Notes under the pieces: generated by a model
What the model was told of the DNA's origin: nothing
The model's input: only the letters and a program-made list of their open reading frames with translations
Database searches by the model: none
Translations under genes and position numbers: made by a program
In this document: positions 28,418 through 36,046 of the stretch, in pieces
How the letters are laid out: every line of letters starts with the position of its first letter
How positions within the stretch are numbered: the first letter of the stretch is position 1
Assembly: GCA_023249675.1 (NCBI GenBank)
Contig: JAHFCE010000008.1
Span: forward strand, 39,246-103,245
Source: Elusimicrobiota bacterium
GTDB lineage: Bacteria > Elusimicrobiota > Elusimicrobia > UBA1565 > UBA9628
Length of the DNA: 64,000 nucleotides
Reading direction: 5' to 3'

Positions 28418-28436
28418 GTCTAACGCCGGGTTGGGC
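28418..28436. repeat. Short GTCTAAC..GTTGGGC palindromic core pair just past the last cassette ORF (possible degenerate terminal attC)
   Basis: RYYYAAC and GTTRRRY cores only 5 bp apart. Too short for a complete attC. Confidence 0.3.
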
Positions 28437-28446
28437 TTCAGCCTGC

Positions 28447-28857
28447 TTACCAGGCCAGCAAATCCTTCAAGTACCACGGCTCAAGTGCCGCAATGACCAA
28501 TATCCGAGCTGTCGCCATCAGAACGATCGCCTTCCACAAGGCCAGCGTCTTCCTGTTTCCGATCAGCGCGCCGCTCACGCCGATTTCGAGAGGCAAGAGG
28601 AGAAAGCCCAAATATGGAAGTTGAGATAAAAACAGGACGATCGGCATGCTCGCGCGTAATGCGGCCCAATGGGCCTTCGGAAGATCGATATAAAACAGGA
28701 AAGCCCATGCGAGGCCAAAAAAGAATATCGGCGAGCAGAAGATCGCATAGACGCCGGTGCTCTGATTGAAAAAAAATCCGAGGCCAAGCACCGCGACGGC
28801 AGTCGATCCGGCGATGAGTCTCTTGCGTCTGGTCGATTCACTCATATGTGAGCCCAA
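28447..28857 (-). CDS. Cassette ORF: small polytopic membrane protein, unknown function
   Basis: Four TM helices. Low-GC. Confidence 0.4.
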   Translation of the reverse strand: MGSHMSESTRRKRLIAGSTAVAVLGLGFFFNQSTGVYAIFCSPIFFFGLAWAFLFYIDLPKAHWAALRASMPIVLFLSQLPYLGFLLLPLEIGVSGALIGNRKTLALWKAIVLMATARILVIAALEPWYLKDLLAW

Positions 28858-28861
28858 CGAG

Positions 28862-28916
28862 AGGGTGAGCGGCGGCTATGAAGGTACTCCTTTTACGCTG
28901 TTAAGTCGTTCTTGAC
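28862..28916. repeat. attC-like site (short, about 55 bp): GCCCAAC...GTTAAGT
   Basis: Left half aligns with the other attC copies (GAGGGTGAGCGGCGGCTATGAAG). Overlaps the stop of the DUF2975-like ORF. Confidence 0.5.
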
Positions 28917-29370
28917 CGGCATTCTGCAAAATCCGTTCAAACATCACCGCCGCTGTGGCGCTAAGAGCAGAACCGAAGGTAATGAGGGCGCCCATAAAAA
29001 CACCGCCTGCACGATCATCACTGTTGCTCAACATAATGAAAAGTTCTCCTACCGCAACAGAACCGATAATGGCTAACGCACAAAGTTTTATAGTCCGCAG
29101 AGCCGCCTCTGTTGCTTGCGAGAACGCCTTGTTTTGTCCGATGTATCCCAACACCTTGAATGCCTGATAGAGTGCCACATAAAATGGAATGGACGCTAAA
29201 TACGCATACGCCAAAAAGGGGTCTTTGAAATAGATCTCAAAGAGCGTGGCGTGCGCGTTTCTACCTTCGATGCGGGGCTCCCAAAGCATGAGAGCAAGAG
29301 CCCCAATGCTGGTGAGCATAATGACTGCCTGAAGGAATTTCGTTGGAATGACGAGTGACCGCTTTTTCAT
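28876..29370 (-). CDS. Cassette ORF: DUF2975-like membrane protein
   Basis: Four TM helices with YoaS/DUF2975-like pattern. Low-GC. Confidence 0.4.
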   Translation of the reverse strand: MKKRSLVIPTKFLQAVIMLTSIGALALMLWEPRIEGRNAHATLFEIYFKDPFLAYAYLASIPFYVALYQAFKVLGYIGQNKAFSQATEAALRTIKLCALAIIGSVAVGELFIMLSNSDDRAGGVFMGALITFGSALSATAAVMFERILQNAGQERLNSVKGVPS

Positions 29371-29379
29371 CTTATGGCC

Positions 29380-29456
29380 GCCGAACGCCGAGGATGGGCG
29401 GCGGCTATTAAGATATTCCGCACTGAGTCTTCGTCCGCTCTATCCATTAGTTAGGC
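29380..29456. repeat. attC-like site (77 bp): GCCGAAC...GTTAGGC
   Basis: About 80% identical to the 30092-30171 copy, including the internal inverted repeat GCGGCGGCT/..GAG..CGC. Confidence 0.6.
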
Positions 29457-30065
29457 AGCCTCCGACGTATTCTGTGTTGCGCTTACATCAAGATCTCGCA
29501 GCAGGCCATCATGAAGGTCGTAAATCCAGCCGTGCACGGTCAGAGGACGCCCCTTGGCCCATGCCGAGGTGAGAATTGGAAGACGGCTGAGCTCTCGAAC
29601 CTGGCTAATCACGTTGAGTTCGCAGAGGCGTCGCCAACGCGCGTCCGCGTCGGTTCTACCGTCAATATCGGCCGCTTGGGAACGGCGTATCTCGCGTATT
29701 GGTGCAATCCAGCGCTCAAGCGGCTTCGGAACGGGTGCCCCAAGTGCTGCTTGAACGCCGCCACAGCCATAGTGGCCGCATACGATGACATCTGTGGTGC
29801 CAAGAAATTCGATCGCATACTGAAGAACGGCGATGCAGTTTAAGTCATCCGCGCGAACGATATTGGCCACGTTGCGGTGAACGAACAACTCGCCGGGTTC
29901 GAGGCCGACGATTTCGTTGGCCGGCACACGACTGTCCGCGCAACCGATCCAAAGGTAGCGGGGTGTCTGAATTGCGCACAGGCGTGTAAAATACTGCGGA
30001 TTCTGACTAACGCGCTTGGTTGCCCAGGCGCGATTGTTGGCGAAAAGTTCCGGCAAGTAACGCAT
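29451..30065 (-). CDS. Cassette ORF: beta-class carbonic anhydrase
   Basis: CADSRV and HYGCGG zinc-ligand motifs. Confidence 0.8.
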   Translation of the reverse strand: MRYLPELFANNRAWATKRVSQNPQYFTRLCAIQTPRYLWIGCADSRVPANEIVGLEPGELFVHRNVANIVRADDLNCIAVLQYAIEFLGTTDVIVCGHYGCGGVQAALGAPVPKPLERWIAPIREIRRSQAADIDGRTDADARWRRLCELNVISQVRELSRLPILTSAWAKGRPLTVHGWIYDLHDGLLRDLDVSATQNTSEAA

Positions 30066-30091
30066 TTGTTTCCCTTGAACCTAAATGGCTG

Positions 30092-30171
30092 GCCTAACGC
30101 AGGGGCTGACCAGCGGCGGCTATCAAGATATTCCGCACTGAGCCGCCGGCCGTTCTATCCATTGGTTAGGG
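30092..30171. repeat. attC-like site (80 bp): GCCTAAC...GTTAGGG
   Basis: Terminal inverted cores plus an internal inverted repeat (CAGCGGCGGCT...GAGCCGCCGGC). Lies between the brnA stop and the carbonic anhydrase start. Confidence 0.65.
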
Positions 30172-30402
30172 CAATGGGTGACGAGTTGCATAGGCATCAA
30201 TCAGTTTGCGGATCATCTTCTGATAGGGCGTGTGATATTTCTGCGCGGCCTTCTTGAAGAAGGCAACGCTCGACTTGCTGAGCGCCATGGTTATCTTCAC
30301 GCTCTCCTCCTTGAAGGCCAGTTCTTCAGGAGGGGGCAGGGAATCCCTGACCACGCTCAACGCGCCAAGAGGTTCATCCGTGTATTTGATTTTCTTTTTC
30401 AT
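30166..30402 (-). CDS. Cassette ORF: BrnA-like ribbon-helix-helix antitoxin
   Basis: MKKKIKYTDEPLG... with C-terminal RHH pattern (VKITMALSKSSVAFFKKAAQKYHTPYQKMIRKLIDAY). Its start lies inside the 3' end of the BrnT-like frame. Confidence 0.6.
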   Translation of the reverse strand: MKKKIKYTDEPLGALSVVRDSLPPPEELAFKEESVKITMALSKSSVAFFKKAAQKYHTPYQKMIRKLIDAYATRHPLP

Positions 30403-30646
30403 AAAGAGCCTTCCCTTTTCGCCAGTAGCCCGCTCCAAAGAGGCGAATCTTTTTCTCTCTGTACGTGAATCGAACGGTGAGGATTCCGTCGCCGACGCGG
30501 CCGAAGCAATACAACCGTTTTTCCTTCTGACTGTGCTCCAGATCTTCCGCGATAACTCTTTTGCTATCAGCGAATGCATGTTGAGCCGTTTCAAATGAAC
30601 CATGCGCCTCTTTAAGTATATATTGTATATGTATAAATAGCCATAC
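30374..30646 (-). pseudogene. BrnT-like (DUF497) toxin reading frame lacking a canonical start; out of frame with the SD-preceded ATG at 30603
   Basis: Frame -3 encodes ...HGSFETAQHAFADSKRVIAEDLEHSQKEKRLYCFGRVGDGILTVRFTYREKKIRLFGAGYWRKGKALYEKE*. The only ATG, preceded by AAGAGG, is in another frame (MVHLKRLN...). The 145-aa six-frame ORF is a chimera of both. Confidence 0.5.
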
Positions 30647-30699
30647 TTATTTATGGTCTAAAATAACATCATTTCGTCCCTGACGATTTGGCTGAATTG

Positions 30700-30777
30700 C
30701 CCTAACGCAGAGGATGACGAGCGGCGGCTATCAAGATCTCCATGCAAGCCGCCGTCTCGTCAATCCAATGGTTCGGT
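30700..30777. repeat. attC-like site (78 bp): CCCTAAC...GTTCGGT (degenerate cores)
   Basis: Aligns over about 80 bp with the 30092-30171 copy (AGCGGCGGCTATCAAGAT shared). Confidence 0.55.
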
Positions 30778-30800
30778 GTCCACTGCAATTTCATTTTAAC

Positions 30801-30873
30801 GCCGTTCATGCCGTTGCCTTCAAAGCCGTTTCGCCGTTCAGCCGTTTACGCCGTTTTGTCCGTCCTTCCGTTA
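30801..30873. repeat. Array of six GCCGTT direct repeats (8-15 bp spacing) plus one TCCGTT, between the caspase stop and the attC-like site
   Basis: GCCGTT at 30801, 30810, 30825, 30833, 30841 and 30850. TCCGTT at 30868. Confidence 0.5.
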
Positions 30874-30930
30874 CCCTGCATTAGAAATCTTTCTGCGGAC
30901 ACAAAATTAAAAATGTTTGAGATCATGGAA

Positions 30931-32346
30931 CTACTTCAGGCGTACTATCTCTTCCGCAGAGCCGGAACCCAGCATCGCCGGCGTCTGCTCGCGGTTCTGT
31001 CGGCGCGCGTCGTCCTGGACCTTGCTCGCGAGATAGTCGAAGAGTTTTTTCGCCCTGACGACTCCGTCGGCGTCGGCCGCGGCGCCGCCCAGGCCCTTCA
31101 GGAAGTGGTAGGTGAACGTCCCGTGACCCTGGTCGTCGCGGACGGTCGTGATCTGATCGGCTCCCGTGGCGGCGAAGACGGTCATTCGGTCCGCGACCGG
31201 CTGGACGCTCTCCGTCTTCGTGACCAGAGGGCGCGCGCCTTTGGCGAGGACGGAGCGTCCTCCGGCGCCCGAGAAGCAGGCGTCCAGGGCGACGATGACT
31301 TGCTTGACCTTCAAGCCGCCGAGCTTCTCGTAGAGGCGCTTGACGGGGTAGGCCGTGTTTTCAAGGAAACTGGGGTCGCCGTCCCAGGGCACGAGGTAGG
31401 ACGCGCCGGAGGAGGGATCGGGGGCTCCATGGCCGGAGAAGTAGAAGAAAACCCGACTGTTGGGCGTGACGTTCTTGGGAAGCCATACCTCGAGGAACTT
31501 CTGCAGGGCGGTGAAGCCCGCTTTCTCGCCCAGCAGGGAAACGACGTTGCGGCTGGGGTAGCCCATCGCCAGCAGGTGGTTCTTGACGGCTTGCGCGTCG
31601 CGCTCCGCGAACGCGGCTTCGGGCAGGTCCGAGTATTTCGAGATGCCCATGACAATGGCGAAGTCGTCCGGGCGCTGCGCGAGCTTGAGCGCGGAAGCGT
31701 CGACGTCCGAGTGGATCTCGGGCGCCGGTTTCGCGGGAGCCGCCTGGCCGGCCGCCACCGCCTCCGTCACCAAGCTCTGCATCTCGGCCTTGGAGATTCC
31801 CGACCCAGAGGGCTTCGCGAGCTCTTTGCGTTTGAGGCTCTCCGCGCGTTGCGCCATCACTTTTTGGTGCAGGGTGCTGCCCGGATAAAAGTTCGCCCGC
31901 AACATCTGGCCCATCCCTTTCCAGGGGTTGCTGAAGGGGGAGGAGTAGATTTCCTCGTAGTAAAGCTCCTCCTTCGTGTAGGCGGAGAGGGCCTGGATTC
32001 CGTAATGCATGCGCAGCGTGTTTTGCGGCGGCGGCTCTCGGAACGGGCCGAATTTCCCGAACATGGTGTTGACGATCACGTCAGCGTTGCGGGGTTCGTT
32101 TGGGTTGGCGATCAGGAATATGTGCCAGGAGGGATTGGCCATCTGCATCCGGGTGATGATGATGTCGGTGTAGACAGACGCGGCGGAGGTGACGCCGAAG
32201 CTCAACTCCTGGTTGGAATTTCCCGTCTCAACGGTGACCGTGGTTCCGCCGCCCTTGACGCGCTCCGCGCCGCCGCAGCCAGTGAGAAATCCTCCGCAAC
32301 CAAGAGCGACAATTAAAACCGCTGCTCGATGTACCAAAGGTGCCAT
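30931..32346 (-). CDS. First cassette ORF: lipoprotein with C-terminal caspase-like (peptidase C14) domain
   Basis: Lipobox LTGC. Catalytic His in FFYFSGHG and Cys in VIVALDACFSGAG. GGAGGA RBS 9 nt upstream. High GC, unlike the other cassettes. Confidence 0.75.
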   Translation of the reverse strand: MAPLVHRAAVLIVALGCGGFLTGCGGAERVKGGGTTVTVETGNSNQELSFGVTSAASVYTDIIITRMQMANPSWHIFLIANPNEPRNADVIVNTMFGKFGPFREPPPQNTLRMHYGIQALSAYTKEELYYEEIYSSPFSNPWKGMGQMLRANFYPGSTLHQKVMAQRAESLKRKELAKPSGSGISKAEMQSLVTEAVAAGQAAPAKPAPEIHSDVDASALKLAQRPDDFAIVMGISKYSDLPEAAFAERDAQAVKNHLLAMGYPSRNVVSLLGEKAGFTALQKFLEVWLPKNVTPNSRVFFYFSGHGAPDPSSGASYLVPWDGDPSFLENTAYPVKRLYEKLGGLKVKQVIVALDACFSGAGGRSVLAKGARPLVTKTESVQPVADRMTVFAATGADQITTVRDDQGHGTFTYHFLKGLGGAAADADGVVRAKKLFDYLASKVQDDARRQNREQTPAMLGSGSAEEIVRLK

Positions 32347-32542
32347 TGACAGTTCCTCCCGTTCCTAATAATTTCAGTGCTGAGCCAGGTACGCCGAACT
32401 TATCAGTATGCGGTTCCGCATAGTGCGACTTCCAATGTTAATCATACTTCGAATTGTGGAGAGAAAATCAGGGCTTTGCCAATGGGGGCGAATATTAATA
32501 TTGCGAAAGGCCGCGATGGGCGACGGTATAGCATCGGTGAGG
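32347..32542. other. AT-rich intergenic region between the intI stop and the first cassette: candidate attI plus cassette promoter
   Basis: GC drops sharply. Contains a GTTAATC core-like sequence (32436-32442). No attC copy here. Confidence 0.35.
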
Positions 32543-33745
32543 TCATTTGGAACCGAGCCCAAGTCGGTCCGCGGGGCTCTGCACGCCGCGTCCTCCGCGA
32601 TTCAGGACATGGGTGTAAATCATCGTGGTGCTGACATCGCTGTGCCCCAGCAGCTCTTGGATCGTGCGAATGTCGTAGCCGTCCTCCAGGAGATGGGTGG
32701 CGAAGGAATGCCTCAAGGTGTGGCATCCGGCCGCCTTGGTGATGCCGGCGTCGATGCGCGCTTGGTGAAAGGCCTTTTGAAGCACCGATTCGTGGAGGTG
32801 ATGCCTTCTCCTTTGGCCGGTCTCGCGATCCACATAGTGGCTCGCGGCGGGAAACACCCATTGCCACCCCCACTCTTTGTCGGCGTTCGGATACTTTCGC
32901 GCCAATGCATTTGGCAGCTCTACCCGGCCCAGGCCCGCCGTGAGATCGTCCTCATGCTGTCGTTTGACCGCGGACAGGTGGCGCTGAAGGTCTTCGCGAA
33001 GCCCCGAGGGCAAGGTCGTGTAGCGGTCTTTGCCGCCTTTGCCCGAACGCACGACCAGTTGATTGAGGCCCCAGTCGAGGTCCTTGACTCTGAGCTGGCA
33101 GCACTCGAGCAGGCGCAGTCCCGAGCCGTAGAGGAGCATCGCCATGAGGCGAGGCACGCCGCGCATGCGGTCGAGCACATGGCGCACCTCATCTTTGCTC
33201 AGGACGACCGGCAAGCGCTCCGGTCGCTTGGCGCGCACGACGCCCGAGATCAAGCCCAGCTTGCGGCCCAGGCCGTGCTCGAAGGCGAACAGGAGCGCGT
33301 TGAGCGCCTGATTTTGAGTGGAGGCGCTGACATGTCCGGCCTCGGCCAGGTCGGACAGGAAGCGGCCGACGGCGGCCTCGTCGAGCTCCGCGATCGGGTG
33401 CTCGGTGTGCTCAAGGAGCCGCCGAGTCCATGCAACATAGGCGGTTTCGGTGCGCGGGCTGAAGTGTCGGGCCCTGATCGCCGTCCGAACCTTGTCGAGG
33501 AGAGCATCGCATGCGCGCGAAGGGCGGAGGGAGGACGTTGGGGAGCCGGCGAGCTCGACGCGATCATCGGCGAACAAGGCGGTGAGGCGGGCGAGCGCGT
33601 CCTCTTCGCGAGGAACGGACCAGCATTTTTCCGCGTCGTGCCAGCGGCGTCCGGGCACCGTCTTGATCCTGGCGACGCGTTCGGGGGCGTACGAAAAGAA
33701 AACGAGGAGGCGGCCGTTCTCGGGGCGGACGACGATCGAAGCCAT
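32543..33745 (-). CDS. intI: Integron integrase IntI (tyrosine recombinase) with an extra N-terminal domain of about 75 aa
   Basis: IntI-specific insertion ALARKYPNADKEWGWQWVFPA. Catalytic region HTLRHSFATHLL...LLGHSDVSTTMIYTHV. The N-terminal MASIVVRPENGRLLVFFSYAPERVARIKTVPGRRWHDAEKCWSVP is not part of canonical IntI. Confidence 0.85.
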   Translation of the reverse strand: MASIVVRPENGRLLVFFSYAPERVARIKTVPGRRWHDAEKCWSVPREEDALARLTALFADDRVELAGSPTSSLRPSRACDALLDKVRTAIRARHFSPRTETAYVAWTRRLLEHTEHPIAELDEAAVGRFLSDLAEAGHVSASTQNQALNALLFAFEHGLGRKLGLISGVVRAKRPERLPVVLSKDEVRHVLDRMRGVPRLMAMLLYGSGLRLLECCQLRVKDLDWGLNQLVVRSGKGGKDRYTTLPSGLREDLQRHLSAVKRQHEDDLTAGLGRVELPNALARKYPNADKEWGWQWVFPAASHYVDRETGQRRRHHLHESVLQKAFHQARIDAGITKAAGCHTLRHSFATHLLEDGYDIRTIQELLGHSDVSTTMIYTHVLNRGGRGVQSPADRLGLGSK

Positions 33746-33796: not shown

Positions 33797-36046
33797 TTAG
33801 TCCTTGCGCAGCATGCGCGTGAGCCAGCCGACGAGGCCGCCGCGGTGCAGGGCGCAGTCGCGGCTGGGTTCGGTGCCGGCCAGGAACAGCTCGCCGTGCC
33901 TTCCGGGGCAGCCGGAGCGCGCGATCATGCCCGACTCGGGGCACACGAGGACCTCGACGACGGTTTCGGGGCGCGTGAACGGTTCGCCCGGGCGGTCGGC
34001 GGCGGCTTCCTTCATGAACGCGGCCCAGAGCGGCAAGGCGTCTTTTGCCCCGGTAAGCTTGAGGGCGCGGTTGCGGTCGTCACCGACCCAGACGCCGGCG
34101 AGAAGCGCGGACGTGTAGCCGACGAACCAGGCGTCGCGCCCGGCGTTGGTCGTGCCGGTCTTGCCCGCCGTCGGGAAGGTCACGCCGAGATTCTTGAGAT
34201 TGCGCGCGGTGCCCGACTTCGTCACGCTTTCAAGCAACGAGTTCATCAAGAACGCGGTCGCGGGGTCAAGCGAGATCGAGACCTCAGGTGCGACCACCTC
34301 GAGGGCGACGCCGTCGGAATCCACGACCGAGGTCACCAGGCGCGGCGCGGGGCGGATGCCGCCGTGAGCGAAAGGTTCGTAGGCGCTCACGAGCTCAAGG
34401 AGGCCGACCTCGGAGGCGCCGAGCGCTAAGCCCAGGTCGTCGCGCAGGGGGCTCGTGAGGCCGCAGTTCCGGGCCGTTTCCTGGATGCGCTTGAGGCCGA
34501 CGCGCTCCGTCAAGTCGAGCGTCGCCGCGTTGAGCGAACGGGTCAGGGCCTGACGCAAGGTCGTGGTGCCGAAGTAGACGCCCTCGTAATTGGAGGGCGA
34601 CCAGCCTTTGCCGCTTCCGGGCCAGGTCTTCGGCTTGTCGCGCAGGATCGTTGCGGGCGTGAGGCCCATTTGGAGCGCGGCGGCGTACACGAACGGCTTG
34701 AACGCGGAGCCGGGCTGGCGCAGGGCTTGTGTCGCGCGGTTGAACTGGCTTTCGCTGAAGCTGCGTCCGCCCGTGAGTGCCAGCACCGAGCCGTCGCGCG
34801 GGTCGATGACCGCGAGTGCCGCCTGATGCTTCGACGCCCCGAGCGTTTTGCGCGCGAGGTGCTGTAGGAGCGGGTCCATCGCGGTGTGGATCGAGAGGCC
34901 GTAGCGGTACAGTTCGTTGCCGCCGTAGCGCGGCAGGAGTTGGCGCACGACCTCGGCGGCGTAGTAGGCGGAGTCGCGCCGGTCTTCGGGGGCGGCGCCG
35001 CGCGCCGGCTCAAGCGCTGTGCCGAGCGCCGCGTCAAGCTCGGACGGGGAGATCATGCCCTCCTCGCGCATGCGGCGCAGGATGTGGTCGCGCCGCGCCC
35101 TCGCCGCCGCGGGGTCGCGGAAGGGGTTGTAGACGCCGGGGCCGCGGATGACGCCCGCGATCAGAGCCGACTCGGGCAAGGTGAGATCGGAGACTTCTTT
35201 CGAAAAATAGTGGCGCGCGGCCGAACGCACGCCCATGATGCTTGCGGGACCGTCCTGGCCGAGATAGATGTGGTTGAGGTAGAGCGTGAGGATGCGCTTC
35301 TTGTCGAGGCGGAGCTCGAGGTACACCGCCAAAGCGGCCTCGGCCAGCTTGCGCCCGAGCGTGCGGTGCGGAGACAGGAAGAGATTCTTCGAGAGCTGCT
35401 GGGTGATCGTGCTGGCTCCCTGCAGCTCGCGGCGGCGCAGGTTGGAGGACGCCGCGCGCGCCATCGCGCGCGGATCGAGGCCGTGATGACTCCAGTAGCG
35501 CTTGTCTTCGGCGGCGACGACCGCGTCCTTGAGCGAGGGGGGAATCTGCTCCCAGGAGGCGGGCTCGCGCCGTTCGGCCCGCTCGCCTGCGAGTTCGGCG
35601 ACGAGCTCGGGCTCGAGGCGGATTTCGGGGACCGCCCCGCCGAGGTCGTCGAGGATGTTCCAGGATCCCGCGTCGGAGCGGCGCAGGAAGAAGAGGCCTT
35701 CGCCTTGCTCGGAGCCGGGGATGCGGTGGCCGTGCAGAGAGACGGCGAGTTCAGGCGGCGTCCAGCGGTACTCGCCCTTGGCCGGCGCCTGCGACGTGCG
35801 GCGGTAGCCGAGGCGGTCGAGGCGCTCGATGAGGCGCTGCGCCTCGCCCCGCGCGCCGTCCCTGACCGGAAACGGCGCCGCCCAAATGCGCGTCGAGAAG
35901 CTCACGCCCAGGCCGCCGAGCACGAGAGTGGAGAGCTTGCGCTCGGCTTGGAGCGCGAGCCACAGCGACGCGAGGGCCGTCCCGGCGAGGAGAGCCGCCG
36001 CCGCCCAGAGCCAGGCGGAACCGGAGCGCCGTCGCCGTCGAGTCAT
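33797..36046 (-). CDS. mrcA: Bifunctional class A penicillin-binding protein (PBP1 transglycosylase/transpeptidase)
   Basis: GT51 motifs (EDKRYWSHHG, ITQQLSKNLFL). Transpeptidase motifs SAFKPFVY, SLN, KTGTT. Confidence 0.85.
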   Translation of the reverse strand: MTRRRRRSGSAWLWAAAALLAGTALASLWLALQAERKLSTLVLGGLGVSFSTRIWAAPFPVRDGARGEAQRLIERLDRLGYRRTSQAPAKGEYRWTPPELAVSLHGHRIPGSEQGEGLFFLRRSDAGSWNILDDLGGAVPEIRLEPELVAELAGERAERREPASWEQIPPSLKDAVVAAEDKRYWSHHGLDPRAMARAASSNLRRRELQGASTITQQLSKNLFLSPHRTLGRKLAEAALAVYLELRLDKKRILTLYLNHIYLGQDGPASIMGVRSAARHYFSKEVSDLTLPESALIAGVIRGPGVYNPFRDPAAARARRDHILRRMREEGMISPSELDAALGTALEPARGAAPEDRRDSAYYAAEVVRQLLPRYGGNELYRYGLSIHTAMDPLLQHLARKTLGASKHQAALAVIDPRDGSVLALTGGRSFSESQFNRATQALRQPGSAFKPFVYAAALQMGLTPATILRDKPKTWPGSGKGWSPSNYEGVYFGTTTLRQALTRSLNAATLDLTERVGLKRIQETARNCGLTSPLRDDLGLALGASEVGLLELVSAYEPFAHGGIRPAPRLVTSVVDSDGVALEVVAPEVSISLDPATAFLMNSLLESVTKSGTARNLKNLGVTFPTAGKTGTTNAGRDAWFVGYTSALLAGVWVGDDRNRALKLTGAKDALPLWAAFMKEAAADRPGEPFTRPETVVEVLVCPESGMIARSGCPGRHGELFLAGTEPSRDCALHRGGLVGWLTRMLRKD

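Follow-up and report, generated by a model that had tools for sequence, protein, structure and literature searches.

A BrnT/BrnA gene cassette in an environmental integron whose toxin gene was very likely inactivated by a 55-bp internal deletion

The minus strand of the 64-kb stretch of DNA analyzed here (the window) carries a 145-codon open reading frame (ORF) that an earlier note, made from the sequence, had described as a chimera of a BrnA-like antitoxin and a frame-disrupted BrnT-like toxin lying on a cassette. This raises the question of what happened to the toxin gene and whether the locus can still produce a toxin. We consider it very likely that the locus is a BrnT/BrnA type II toxin-antitoxin (TA) cassette in which a 55-bp internal deletion has killed the toxin but spared the antitoxin gene and the regulatory region upstream.

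The chimeric ORF exists as described. It starts with ATG, spans positions 30166..30603 (minus strand), and joins the start of brnT to the brnA frame, so that it encodes MVH, 64 out-of-frame brnT residues, and BrnA. The C-terminal 78 amino acids, which had been called BrnA-like, are equal to the separate gene found directly after brnT in 11 of 11 related loci. In the window, this gene (brnA, 30166..30402, minus strand) is intact, and encodes 78 amino acids with a predicted C-terminal ribbon-helix-helix; a GGAAGG of its own lies 6 nt upstream of the ATG. It overlaps brnT by 29 nt counting the stop codon, likewise in all 11 related loci; the toxin-first order proposed earlier is correct, and the accompanying figure of about 28 nt is not. 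The match of the window BrnA to Pfam PF14384 (19.4 bits, E = 0.0014) lies below the cut-off of 26.1, as does its CopG_antitoxin score (17.2 vs 28). Among close BrnA relatives, 51/53 match PF14384 at E ≤ 0.01, the best at 8.7e-7. An AF2 monomer model of BrnA contains helices at residues 43–55 and 60–74 with pLDDT values of 87–93, and a low-confidence N-terminal half. The best Foldseek matches of this model are CopG and ribbon-helix-helix antitoxins, all weak (E of 0.3 or worse), and no solved structure matched the BrnA sequence at E ≤ 10.

The second frame is clearly that of a BrnT/DUF497 protein. The remnant matches PF04365 (BrnT_toxin) at E = 3e-12, scoring 47.1 bits where the cut-off is 34.5, over profile positions 16–75 of 77 only. 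Searching protein sequences with the fragment gave thousands of homologs; the closest are 94 amino acids long and 86–90% identical (best E = 4e-40, at 90% identity), a similarity well outside what chance would give. An NCBIfam search with both proteins, the BrnT fragment and BrnA, gave no matching model. The remnant occupies 30374..30595 (minus strand) and comprises codons 22–94 and the TGA stop, in a different frame from the start codon. By three-frame translation, it reads ...FETAQHAFADSKRVIAEDLEHSQKEKRLYCFGRVGDGILTVRFTYREKKIRLFGAGYWRKGKALYEKENQIHG up to the stop at 30374–30376; the C-terminus is thus ...YEKENQIHG and not ...YEKE as previously given. No additional stops or indels are present within it, and no second copy of brnT or brnA was found within the window.

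Next, we aligned the locus with intact homologs, as the earlier note had proposed, and this placed the lesion as a 55-bp deletion after ATGGTTCA. In intact relatives, BrnT starts MVHFEWD..., encoded by ATGGTTCATTTTGAATGG, and the protein N-terminus reads MVHFEWDEDKDRENQNKHGVSFETAQHAF.... The DNA alignment between the window and intact loci has a single gap of exactly 55 columns, and the 55-nt difference is consistent against six distinct intact relatives. The window junction reads ATGGTTCA followed directly by TTTGAAACGG, where relatives have ATGGTTCA-TTTTGAATGGGACGA...CACGGCGTATCG-TTTGAAACGG; an undeleted form of this region would read ...CATTTTGAATGGGA.... The segment absent from the window corresponds to TTTTGAATGGG...GTATCG of a related locus, L001. 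What remains of the 5' end is a stub (30596..30603, minus strand) made up of the ATG at 30601–30603 and GTTCA, corresponding to the MVHFEWD start of the relatives. Since this ATG aligns with the start of the intact relatives and the gap follows it, the ATG behind AAGAGG is the true native brnT start. The Shine-Dalgarno-like AAGAGG (30607..30612, minus strand) has AAGAAG at the same place in relatives.

The earlier note had also stated that the BrnT frame lacks a start codon after the upstream TAA and that the only ATG, behind AAGAGG, is in a different frame. Between that TAA and a TTG at 30514, the BrnT frame indeed contains no ATG, GTG, or TTG. The AAGAGG and the brnA frame of the ATG are as stated, and "only" is not, as two more ATGs lie nearby, at codon 9 in the same frame as the 30601–30603 ATG and, in the third frame, close to 30644. 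The disruption of the toxin gene is as claimed, but its cause is an internal deletion of 55 bp; neither a plain frameshift nor the lack of a start codon describes it. A reading of the BrnT frame upstream of the junction, VWLFIHIQYILKEAHGS, as degenerate coding sequence was rejected, as it results from translating the conserved 5' untranslated region in that frame.

The deletion removed 18 codons (5–22) plus 1 nt, directly after native codon 3 or 4. The breakpoint is ambiguous within a TTT microhomology (30593..30595, minus strand). The event has two readings: either 54 bp were lost between two in-frame TTTGAA repeats and a single T dropped out in addition (T4 to T3), or all 55 bp went in one step, with 3 nt of TTT microhomology. 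In the closest intact homolog, P0001, the deleted residues 5–22 are EWDEDKDRENQNKHGVSF. This stretch belongs to the N-terminal FEWD...N..KHG.SF segment of a complete BrnT domain, and it is missing from the window. Across 56 aligned homologs, N14, K17, and H18 never vary, and conservation reaches 90% or more at F4, E5, W6, D7, K10, G19, and F22; these positions all fall within the deleted stretch or at its edge.

To describe the fold, we used P0001 and not the window product. An AF2 model of intact P0001 (pLDDT 86) places β1 at residues 3–5 and α1 at residues 8–18. A Foldseek search shows that it resembles the toxin chain of a Salmonella toxin-antitoxin complex (7VD7_A; TM 0.81, E = 7e-8), followed by RelE/HigB-type toxins. 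A sequence search of solved structures with P0001 recovered 7VD7 only, and not Brucella BrnT (3U97). On this model, codons 5–22 would cover the end of β1, all of α1, and the N..KHG motif. Work on Aave_1720, a BrnT-like RNase, showed that toxicity is abolished by H18A and that K17A lowers both toxicity and RNase activity, and its authors note that the equivalents of K17 and H18 also matter in Brucella BrnT (PMC10714953). Judging from the residues lost, a functional toxin cannot be obtained from the window, either by normal translation or by frameshifting.

Divergence in the remnant suggests that the lesion is young. The pN/pS of the brnT remnant against intact relatives is 0.13–0.21, compared with 0.10–0.15 for brnA, and every amino acid variant in the remnant is also present in intact family members. 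Because the remnant has no further lesions and its pN/pS is like that of brnA, the deletion is recent, with nearly all of the divergence predating it.

The region upstream of brnT has been retained. About 60 bp before the brnT start are nearly invariant across the cassette family, and an AT-rich stretch at 30617..30656 (minus strand), conserved in eight distinct related loci, is a putative promoter/operator. Its elements are CCATA-N6-TATGG (30641–30656), TATACAT-N5-ATATATA (30617–30635), and a −10-like TATACT (30615–30620). The second of these is a perfect inverted repeat, TATACAT-N5-ATGTATA, in L001 and in another related locus, L036, and is conserved in the intact relatives; in the window, a G has become A and the repeat is no longer perfect. 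In L042, a further locus with a dead toxin, this site has diverged as well. A scan for sigma-70 consensus promoters and terminators over 30050–30950 found none. TA cassettes of chromosomal integrons bring their own promoters (PMC13108822), and from this literature and the conservation of the region, we infer that it acts as a promoter/operator. The module is presumably expressed.

The antitoxin carries one substitution unique to the window, F21S (TCC, 30340–30342); the residue is Phe in 120/120 of the closest homologs, within the conserved motif VRDFLPPPEEL. It sits in the N-terminal half of BrnA, the part modeled at low confidence in the AF2 monomer. The antitoxin could be impaired too. F21S may reflect relaxed selection following loss of the toxin; alternatively, the antitoxin may have weakened earlier, favoring toxin loss.

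Two other members of the family appear from their sequences to have suffered independent toxin-killing lesions. In L040 (GCA_043745445.1; L040:4746–5324), a 1-nt deletion in an A-run leaves a 59-amino-acid BrnT, and the C-terminus of BrnA is altered and extended. In L042 (406–804), a 133-bp internal deletion in brnT produces a 132-amino-acid BrnT'-BrnA fusion, P0223. In Photorhabdus, most non-functional TA loci have truncated toxin ORFs, and decay proceeds in two steps, the toxin before the antitoxin (PMC13617665). The window locus shows the usual opening step of TA erosion, in a new, defective member of the known BrnTA type.

We propose the following sequence of events. The intact ancestor would have produced a 94-amino-acid BrnT RNase and a 78-amino-acid BrnA from a single transcript in which the two genes overlap by 29 nt, as expected from the 11 related loci. 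By analogy with the Brucella system, BrnA would have neutralized BrnT and repressed the operon, and the intact module would have punished loss of the cassette. The deletion would then have dropped codons 5–22 and shifted the frame, with loss of the toxin. Since no functional toxin can be made, the module should no longer be addictive. Ribosomes initiating at the old brnT start would now be in the brnA frame and could produce a 145-amino-acid, N-terminally extended BrnA; initiation at brnA's own ATG behind GGAAGG would also be possible. The remaining BrnA is most likely a leftover that has yet to decay. It may still act, as a repressor at its own promoter or by neutralizing related BrnT toxins.

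The long chimeric frame is open because the deletion, of length 3n+1, joins the brnT start to the brnA frame, and because a CTG-to-CTC change removes a stop. At 30478..30480 (minus strand), the brnA frame reads TCA, where six of seven distinct intact relatives have TGA (nt 179 of brnT, within ATC CTG ACC). Without this change, which is synonymous in brnT (Leu), the chimeric ORF would end after about 44 codons. We asked whether the 145-amino-acid fusion could be a selected product, an extended BrnA that either works as a repressor on its own or, as an anti-addiction antitoxin, counters BrnT modules that come in. The need for two changes, the deletion and the loss of a TGA that most relatives keep, speaks for it. 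So does the 133-bp deletion of L042, also 3n+1 and independent, which likewise joins BrnT' to BrnA, and the strong translation signals of brnT now drive the brnA frame. However, the stop was lost through a third-position change silent for Leu, and the intact relative L038 likewise lacks that TGA. The discovery of L042 was biased, as long BrnA matches reveal only fusions. Furthermore, the stretch of 64 residues read out of frame has neither homologs nor any predicted domain (Pfam is blank), brnA retains its own ribosome-binding site, and NCBI sources contain the 78-amino-acid form of BrnA only; the exact 145-amino-acid protein is found on four contigs in public collections. We regard a selected fusion as unlikely, and the open 145-codon frame is most likely incidental. 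The more specific proposal, that the deletion and the TGA loss were selected jointly and turned a dead module into a stand-alone anti-addiction or regulatory BrnA of 145 amino acids, is decidedly unlikely in our view. If it were true, the 145-amino-acid BrnA would shield the host or the array from incoming BrnT-bearing cassettes, and the fusion in L042 would be a second case of the same route.

We also considered whether the lesion is a sequencing or assembly artefact, with the real brnT intact or carrying an in-frame 54-bp deletion and a miscalled T-run. The frame shifts within a T-run, T3 in the window vs T4 in the nearest relatives, and L040 has a comparable single-base loss in an A-run. 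One inserted T, a single-base correction of the kind that the earlier note had named as a refutation, does give a continuous ATG-started BrnT frame of 76 amino acids. However, the product would still lack 18 conserved codons, residues 5–22 with N14, K17, and H18, even if the single base were wrong, and a 55-bp gap flanked by a repeat of merely 3–6 nt is atypical of assembler error. An exact-protein look-up found the 145-amino-acid ORF in three ENA assemblies (ERZ27297570, ERZ27276474, and ERZ27279563), which probably come from one study and the same population. The ERZ27297570 contig is 637,593 bp long, with gene order as in the window. Two short contigs, L043 and L044, align without gaps to window positions 29579–31227 and 29649–30943; L043 differs from the window at one base, at 29638, and both show ATGGTTCATTTGAAACGG. 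The junction, T3 run included, is identical across the three ENA assemblies, two of which are represented by k141 short-read contigs. A search with the junction pattern ATGGTNCAYTTGAAACNGCNCA matched 12 sequences in genome_contigs and 16 in metagenome_contigs, none related to the cassette by BLAST. Given the identical, gap-free junction in three separate assemblies, one with a single-nucleotide difference elsewhere, sequencing error is unlikely as the cause, and an artefact as a whole is very improbable.

That a toxin is still made, by frameshifting (an option left standing by the earlier note), programmed at CAT-TTG-AAA, or as an N-terminally shortened active BrnT, is scarcely credible: the start codon, Shine-Dalgarno sequence, and C-terminal 73 codons are undamaged, but a frameshift would yield only MVHF-ETAQ..., which cannot rebuild residues 5–22 (N14, K17, H18, β1, and α1) and so lacks the histidine whose replacement abolishes toxicity in a BrnT-like toxin (PMC10714953), the site reads without a canonical slippery heptamer, and the BrnT frame offers no ATG, GTG, or TTG before 30514.

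The module is carried by an integron gene cassette, as had been claimed, with attC-like sites at both ends and an integron integrase nearby. We placed attC sites by pattern search, alignment, and folding, with a GTTRRRY core and R''/L''/L'/R' imperfect inverted repeats as the criterion; a crude regular-expression scan gave no matches, as its pattern was too strict. The cassette is 608 bp long (30098..30705, minus strand): it begins with the TT of the upstream core, GTTAGGG, and finishes on the G of its own core, GTTAGGC. In L001 and L002, the same cassette has GTTAG cores at both of these boundaries. An undeleted version would measure 663 bp. Its own attC (30092..30171, minus strand) ends in GTTAGGC (30092–30098) and is composed of R'' CCTAAC, L'' GGCCGGCGGCT, L' AGCCGCCGC, and R' GTTAGGC, with R'' overlapping the brnA stop codon. 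In the DNA fold, R''/R' and L''/L' pair, with an energy z-score of only −1. The attC of the preceding Peptidase_C14 cassette (30700..30778, minus strand) ends in GTTAGGG (30700–30706) and folds with a z-score of −4.7. The pairings in these folds are CCTAAC with GTTAGG and GGCGGCT with AGCCGCC. A pattern search of the window found four similar attC-type sites on the same strand.

The integrase gene, intI (32543..33745, minus strand), matches TIGR02249 with 427 bits against a cut-off of 265. The brnTA cassette is the second in a five-cassette array behind it, in the order Peptidase_C14, brnT'A, β-carbonic anhydrase, DUF2975, and a 136-amino-acid ORF, and the array ends near 28420. The integrase and its five cassettes (28420–32400) share the minus strand, unlike the divergent layout of classical integrons; the orientation of integrase to cassette in L036 is as in the window. 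A PBP1A gene (33797–36046) directly adjoins intI. Directly after the brnT'A cassette is that for a Pro_CA β-class carbonic anhydrase (29451–30065, minus strand; E = 2e-49). Directly before it is the cassette for a caspase-like Peptidase_C14 protein (30931–32346, minus strand), and the same is true in L002 (L002:299–1444). The caspase domains in the window and in L002 are 54% identical; their N-terminal parts differ, with ankyrin repeats in L002. Peptidase_C14 and brnTA may form a conserved two-cassette neighborhood. Antisense to the Peptidase_C14 gene lies a 524-amino-acid ORF (30742–32316, plus strand) without a family match, most likely a shadow ORF of the G+C-rich coding strand.

Homologous brnTA units are found among unrelated genes in L001, L002, L036, and L038, those in L001 and L002 with the same boundaries, in keeping with a mobile unit. 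In L036, a tyrosine recombinase that has both Pfam domains of the window IntI lies 3.4 kb upstream of the cassette. Three groundwater metagenome contigs, L045, L046, and L047, carry an IntI that falls into the 90%-identity cluster of the window IntI, and they share its PBP1A-intI synteny. We looked for an intact brnTA in these three, as hosts of an IntI at least 90% identical; it was absent, and their cassettes are entirely different. The array therefore appears to turn over quickly between close relatives.

For annotation, these results mean that the 145-amino-acid ORF should be treated as a chimera, the BrnT fragment as a pseudogene, and the 78-amino-acid BrnA as the sole bona fide gene. The locus offers a clean, datable case of toxin-first TA erosion within an environmental integron and fits the current view that small deletions strip TA cassettes of their addictive power.

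Like BrnT/BrnA of Brucella abortus (BAB1_0994/0993; PF04365 and PF14384), the module has the toxin first, overlapping genes, a DUF497/BrnT domain, a small antitoxin with a predicted C-terminal ribbon-helix-helix, and upstream inverted repeats that are candidate autoregulation sites. Unlike the Brucella system, the window toxin is out of frame and lacks codons 5–22, and the antitoxin scores below threshold for Pfam BrnA. The best solved relative is 7VD7 from Salmonella. Aave_1720/Aave_1719 of Acidovorax citrulli is a more distant comparison, Aave_1720 being a distant homolog; its K17-H18 motif, needed for toxicity, is the same motif deleted in the window, and its antitoxin partner, Aave_1719, is reported to have RNase activity (PMC10714953).

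Compared with the TA cassettes of the Vibrio cholerae superintegron (PMC13108822), the locus is alike in that a TA pair lies in one attC-bounded cassette of a chromosomal array, apparently with its own 5' regulatory region and with an expected role as a penalty on cassette loss. It is unlike them in that the array has just five cassettes with intI on the cassette strand and that the toxin appears dead, so that the stabilizing role would be lost. The closest likeness in state is to eroded TA loci and orphan antitoxins, in which the toxin ORF is deleted or truncated and the antitoxin ORF is intact (PMC13617665). We see no essential difference from these, except that the deletion in the window happens to join the toxin start to the antitoxin frame.
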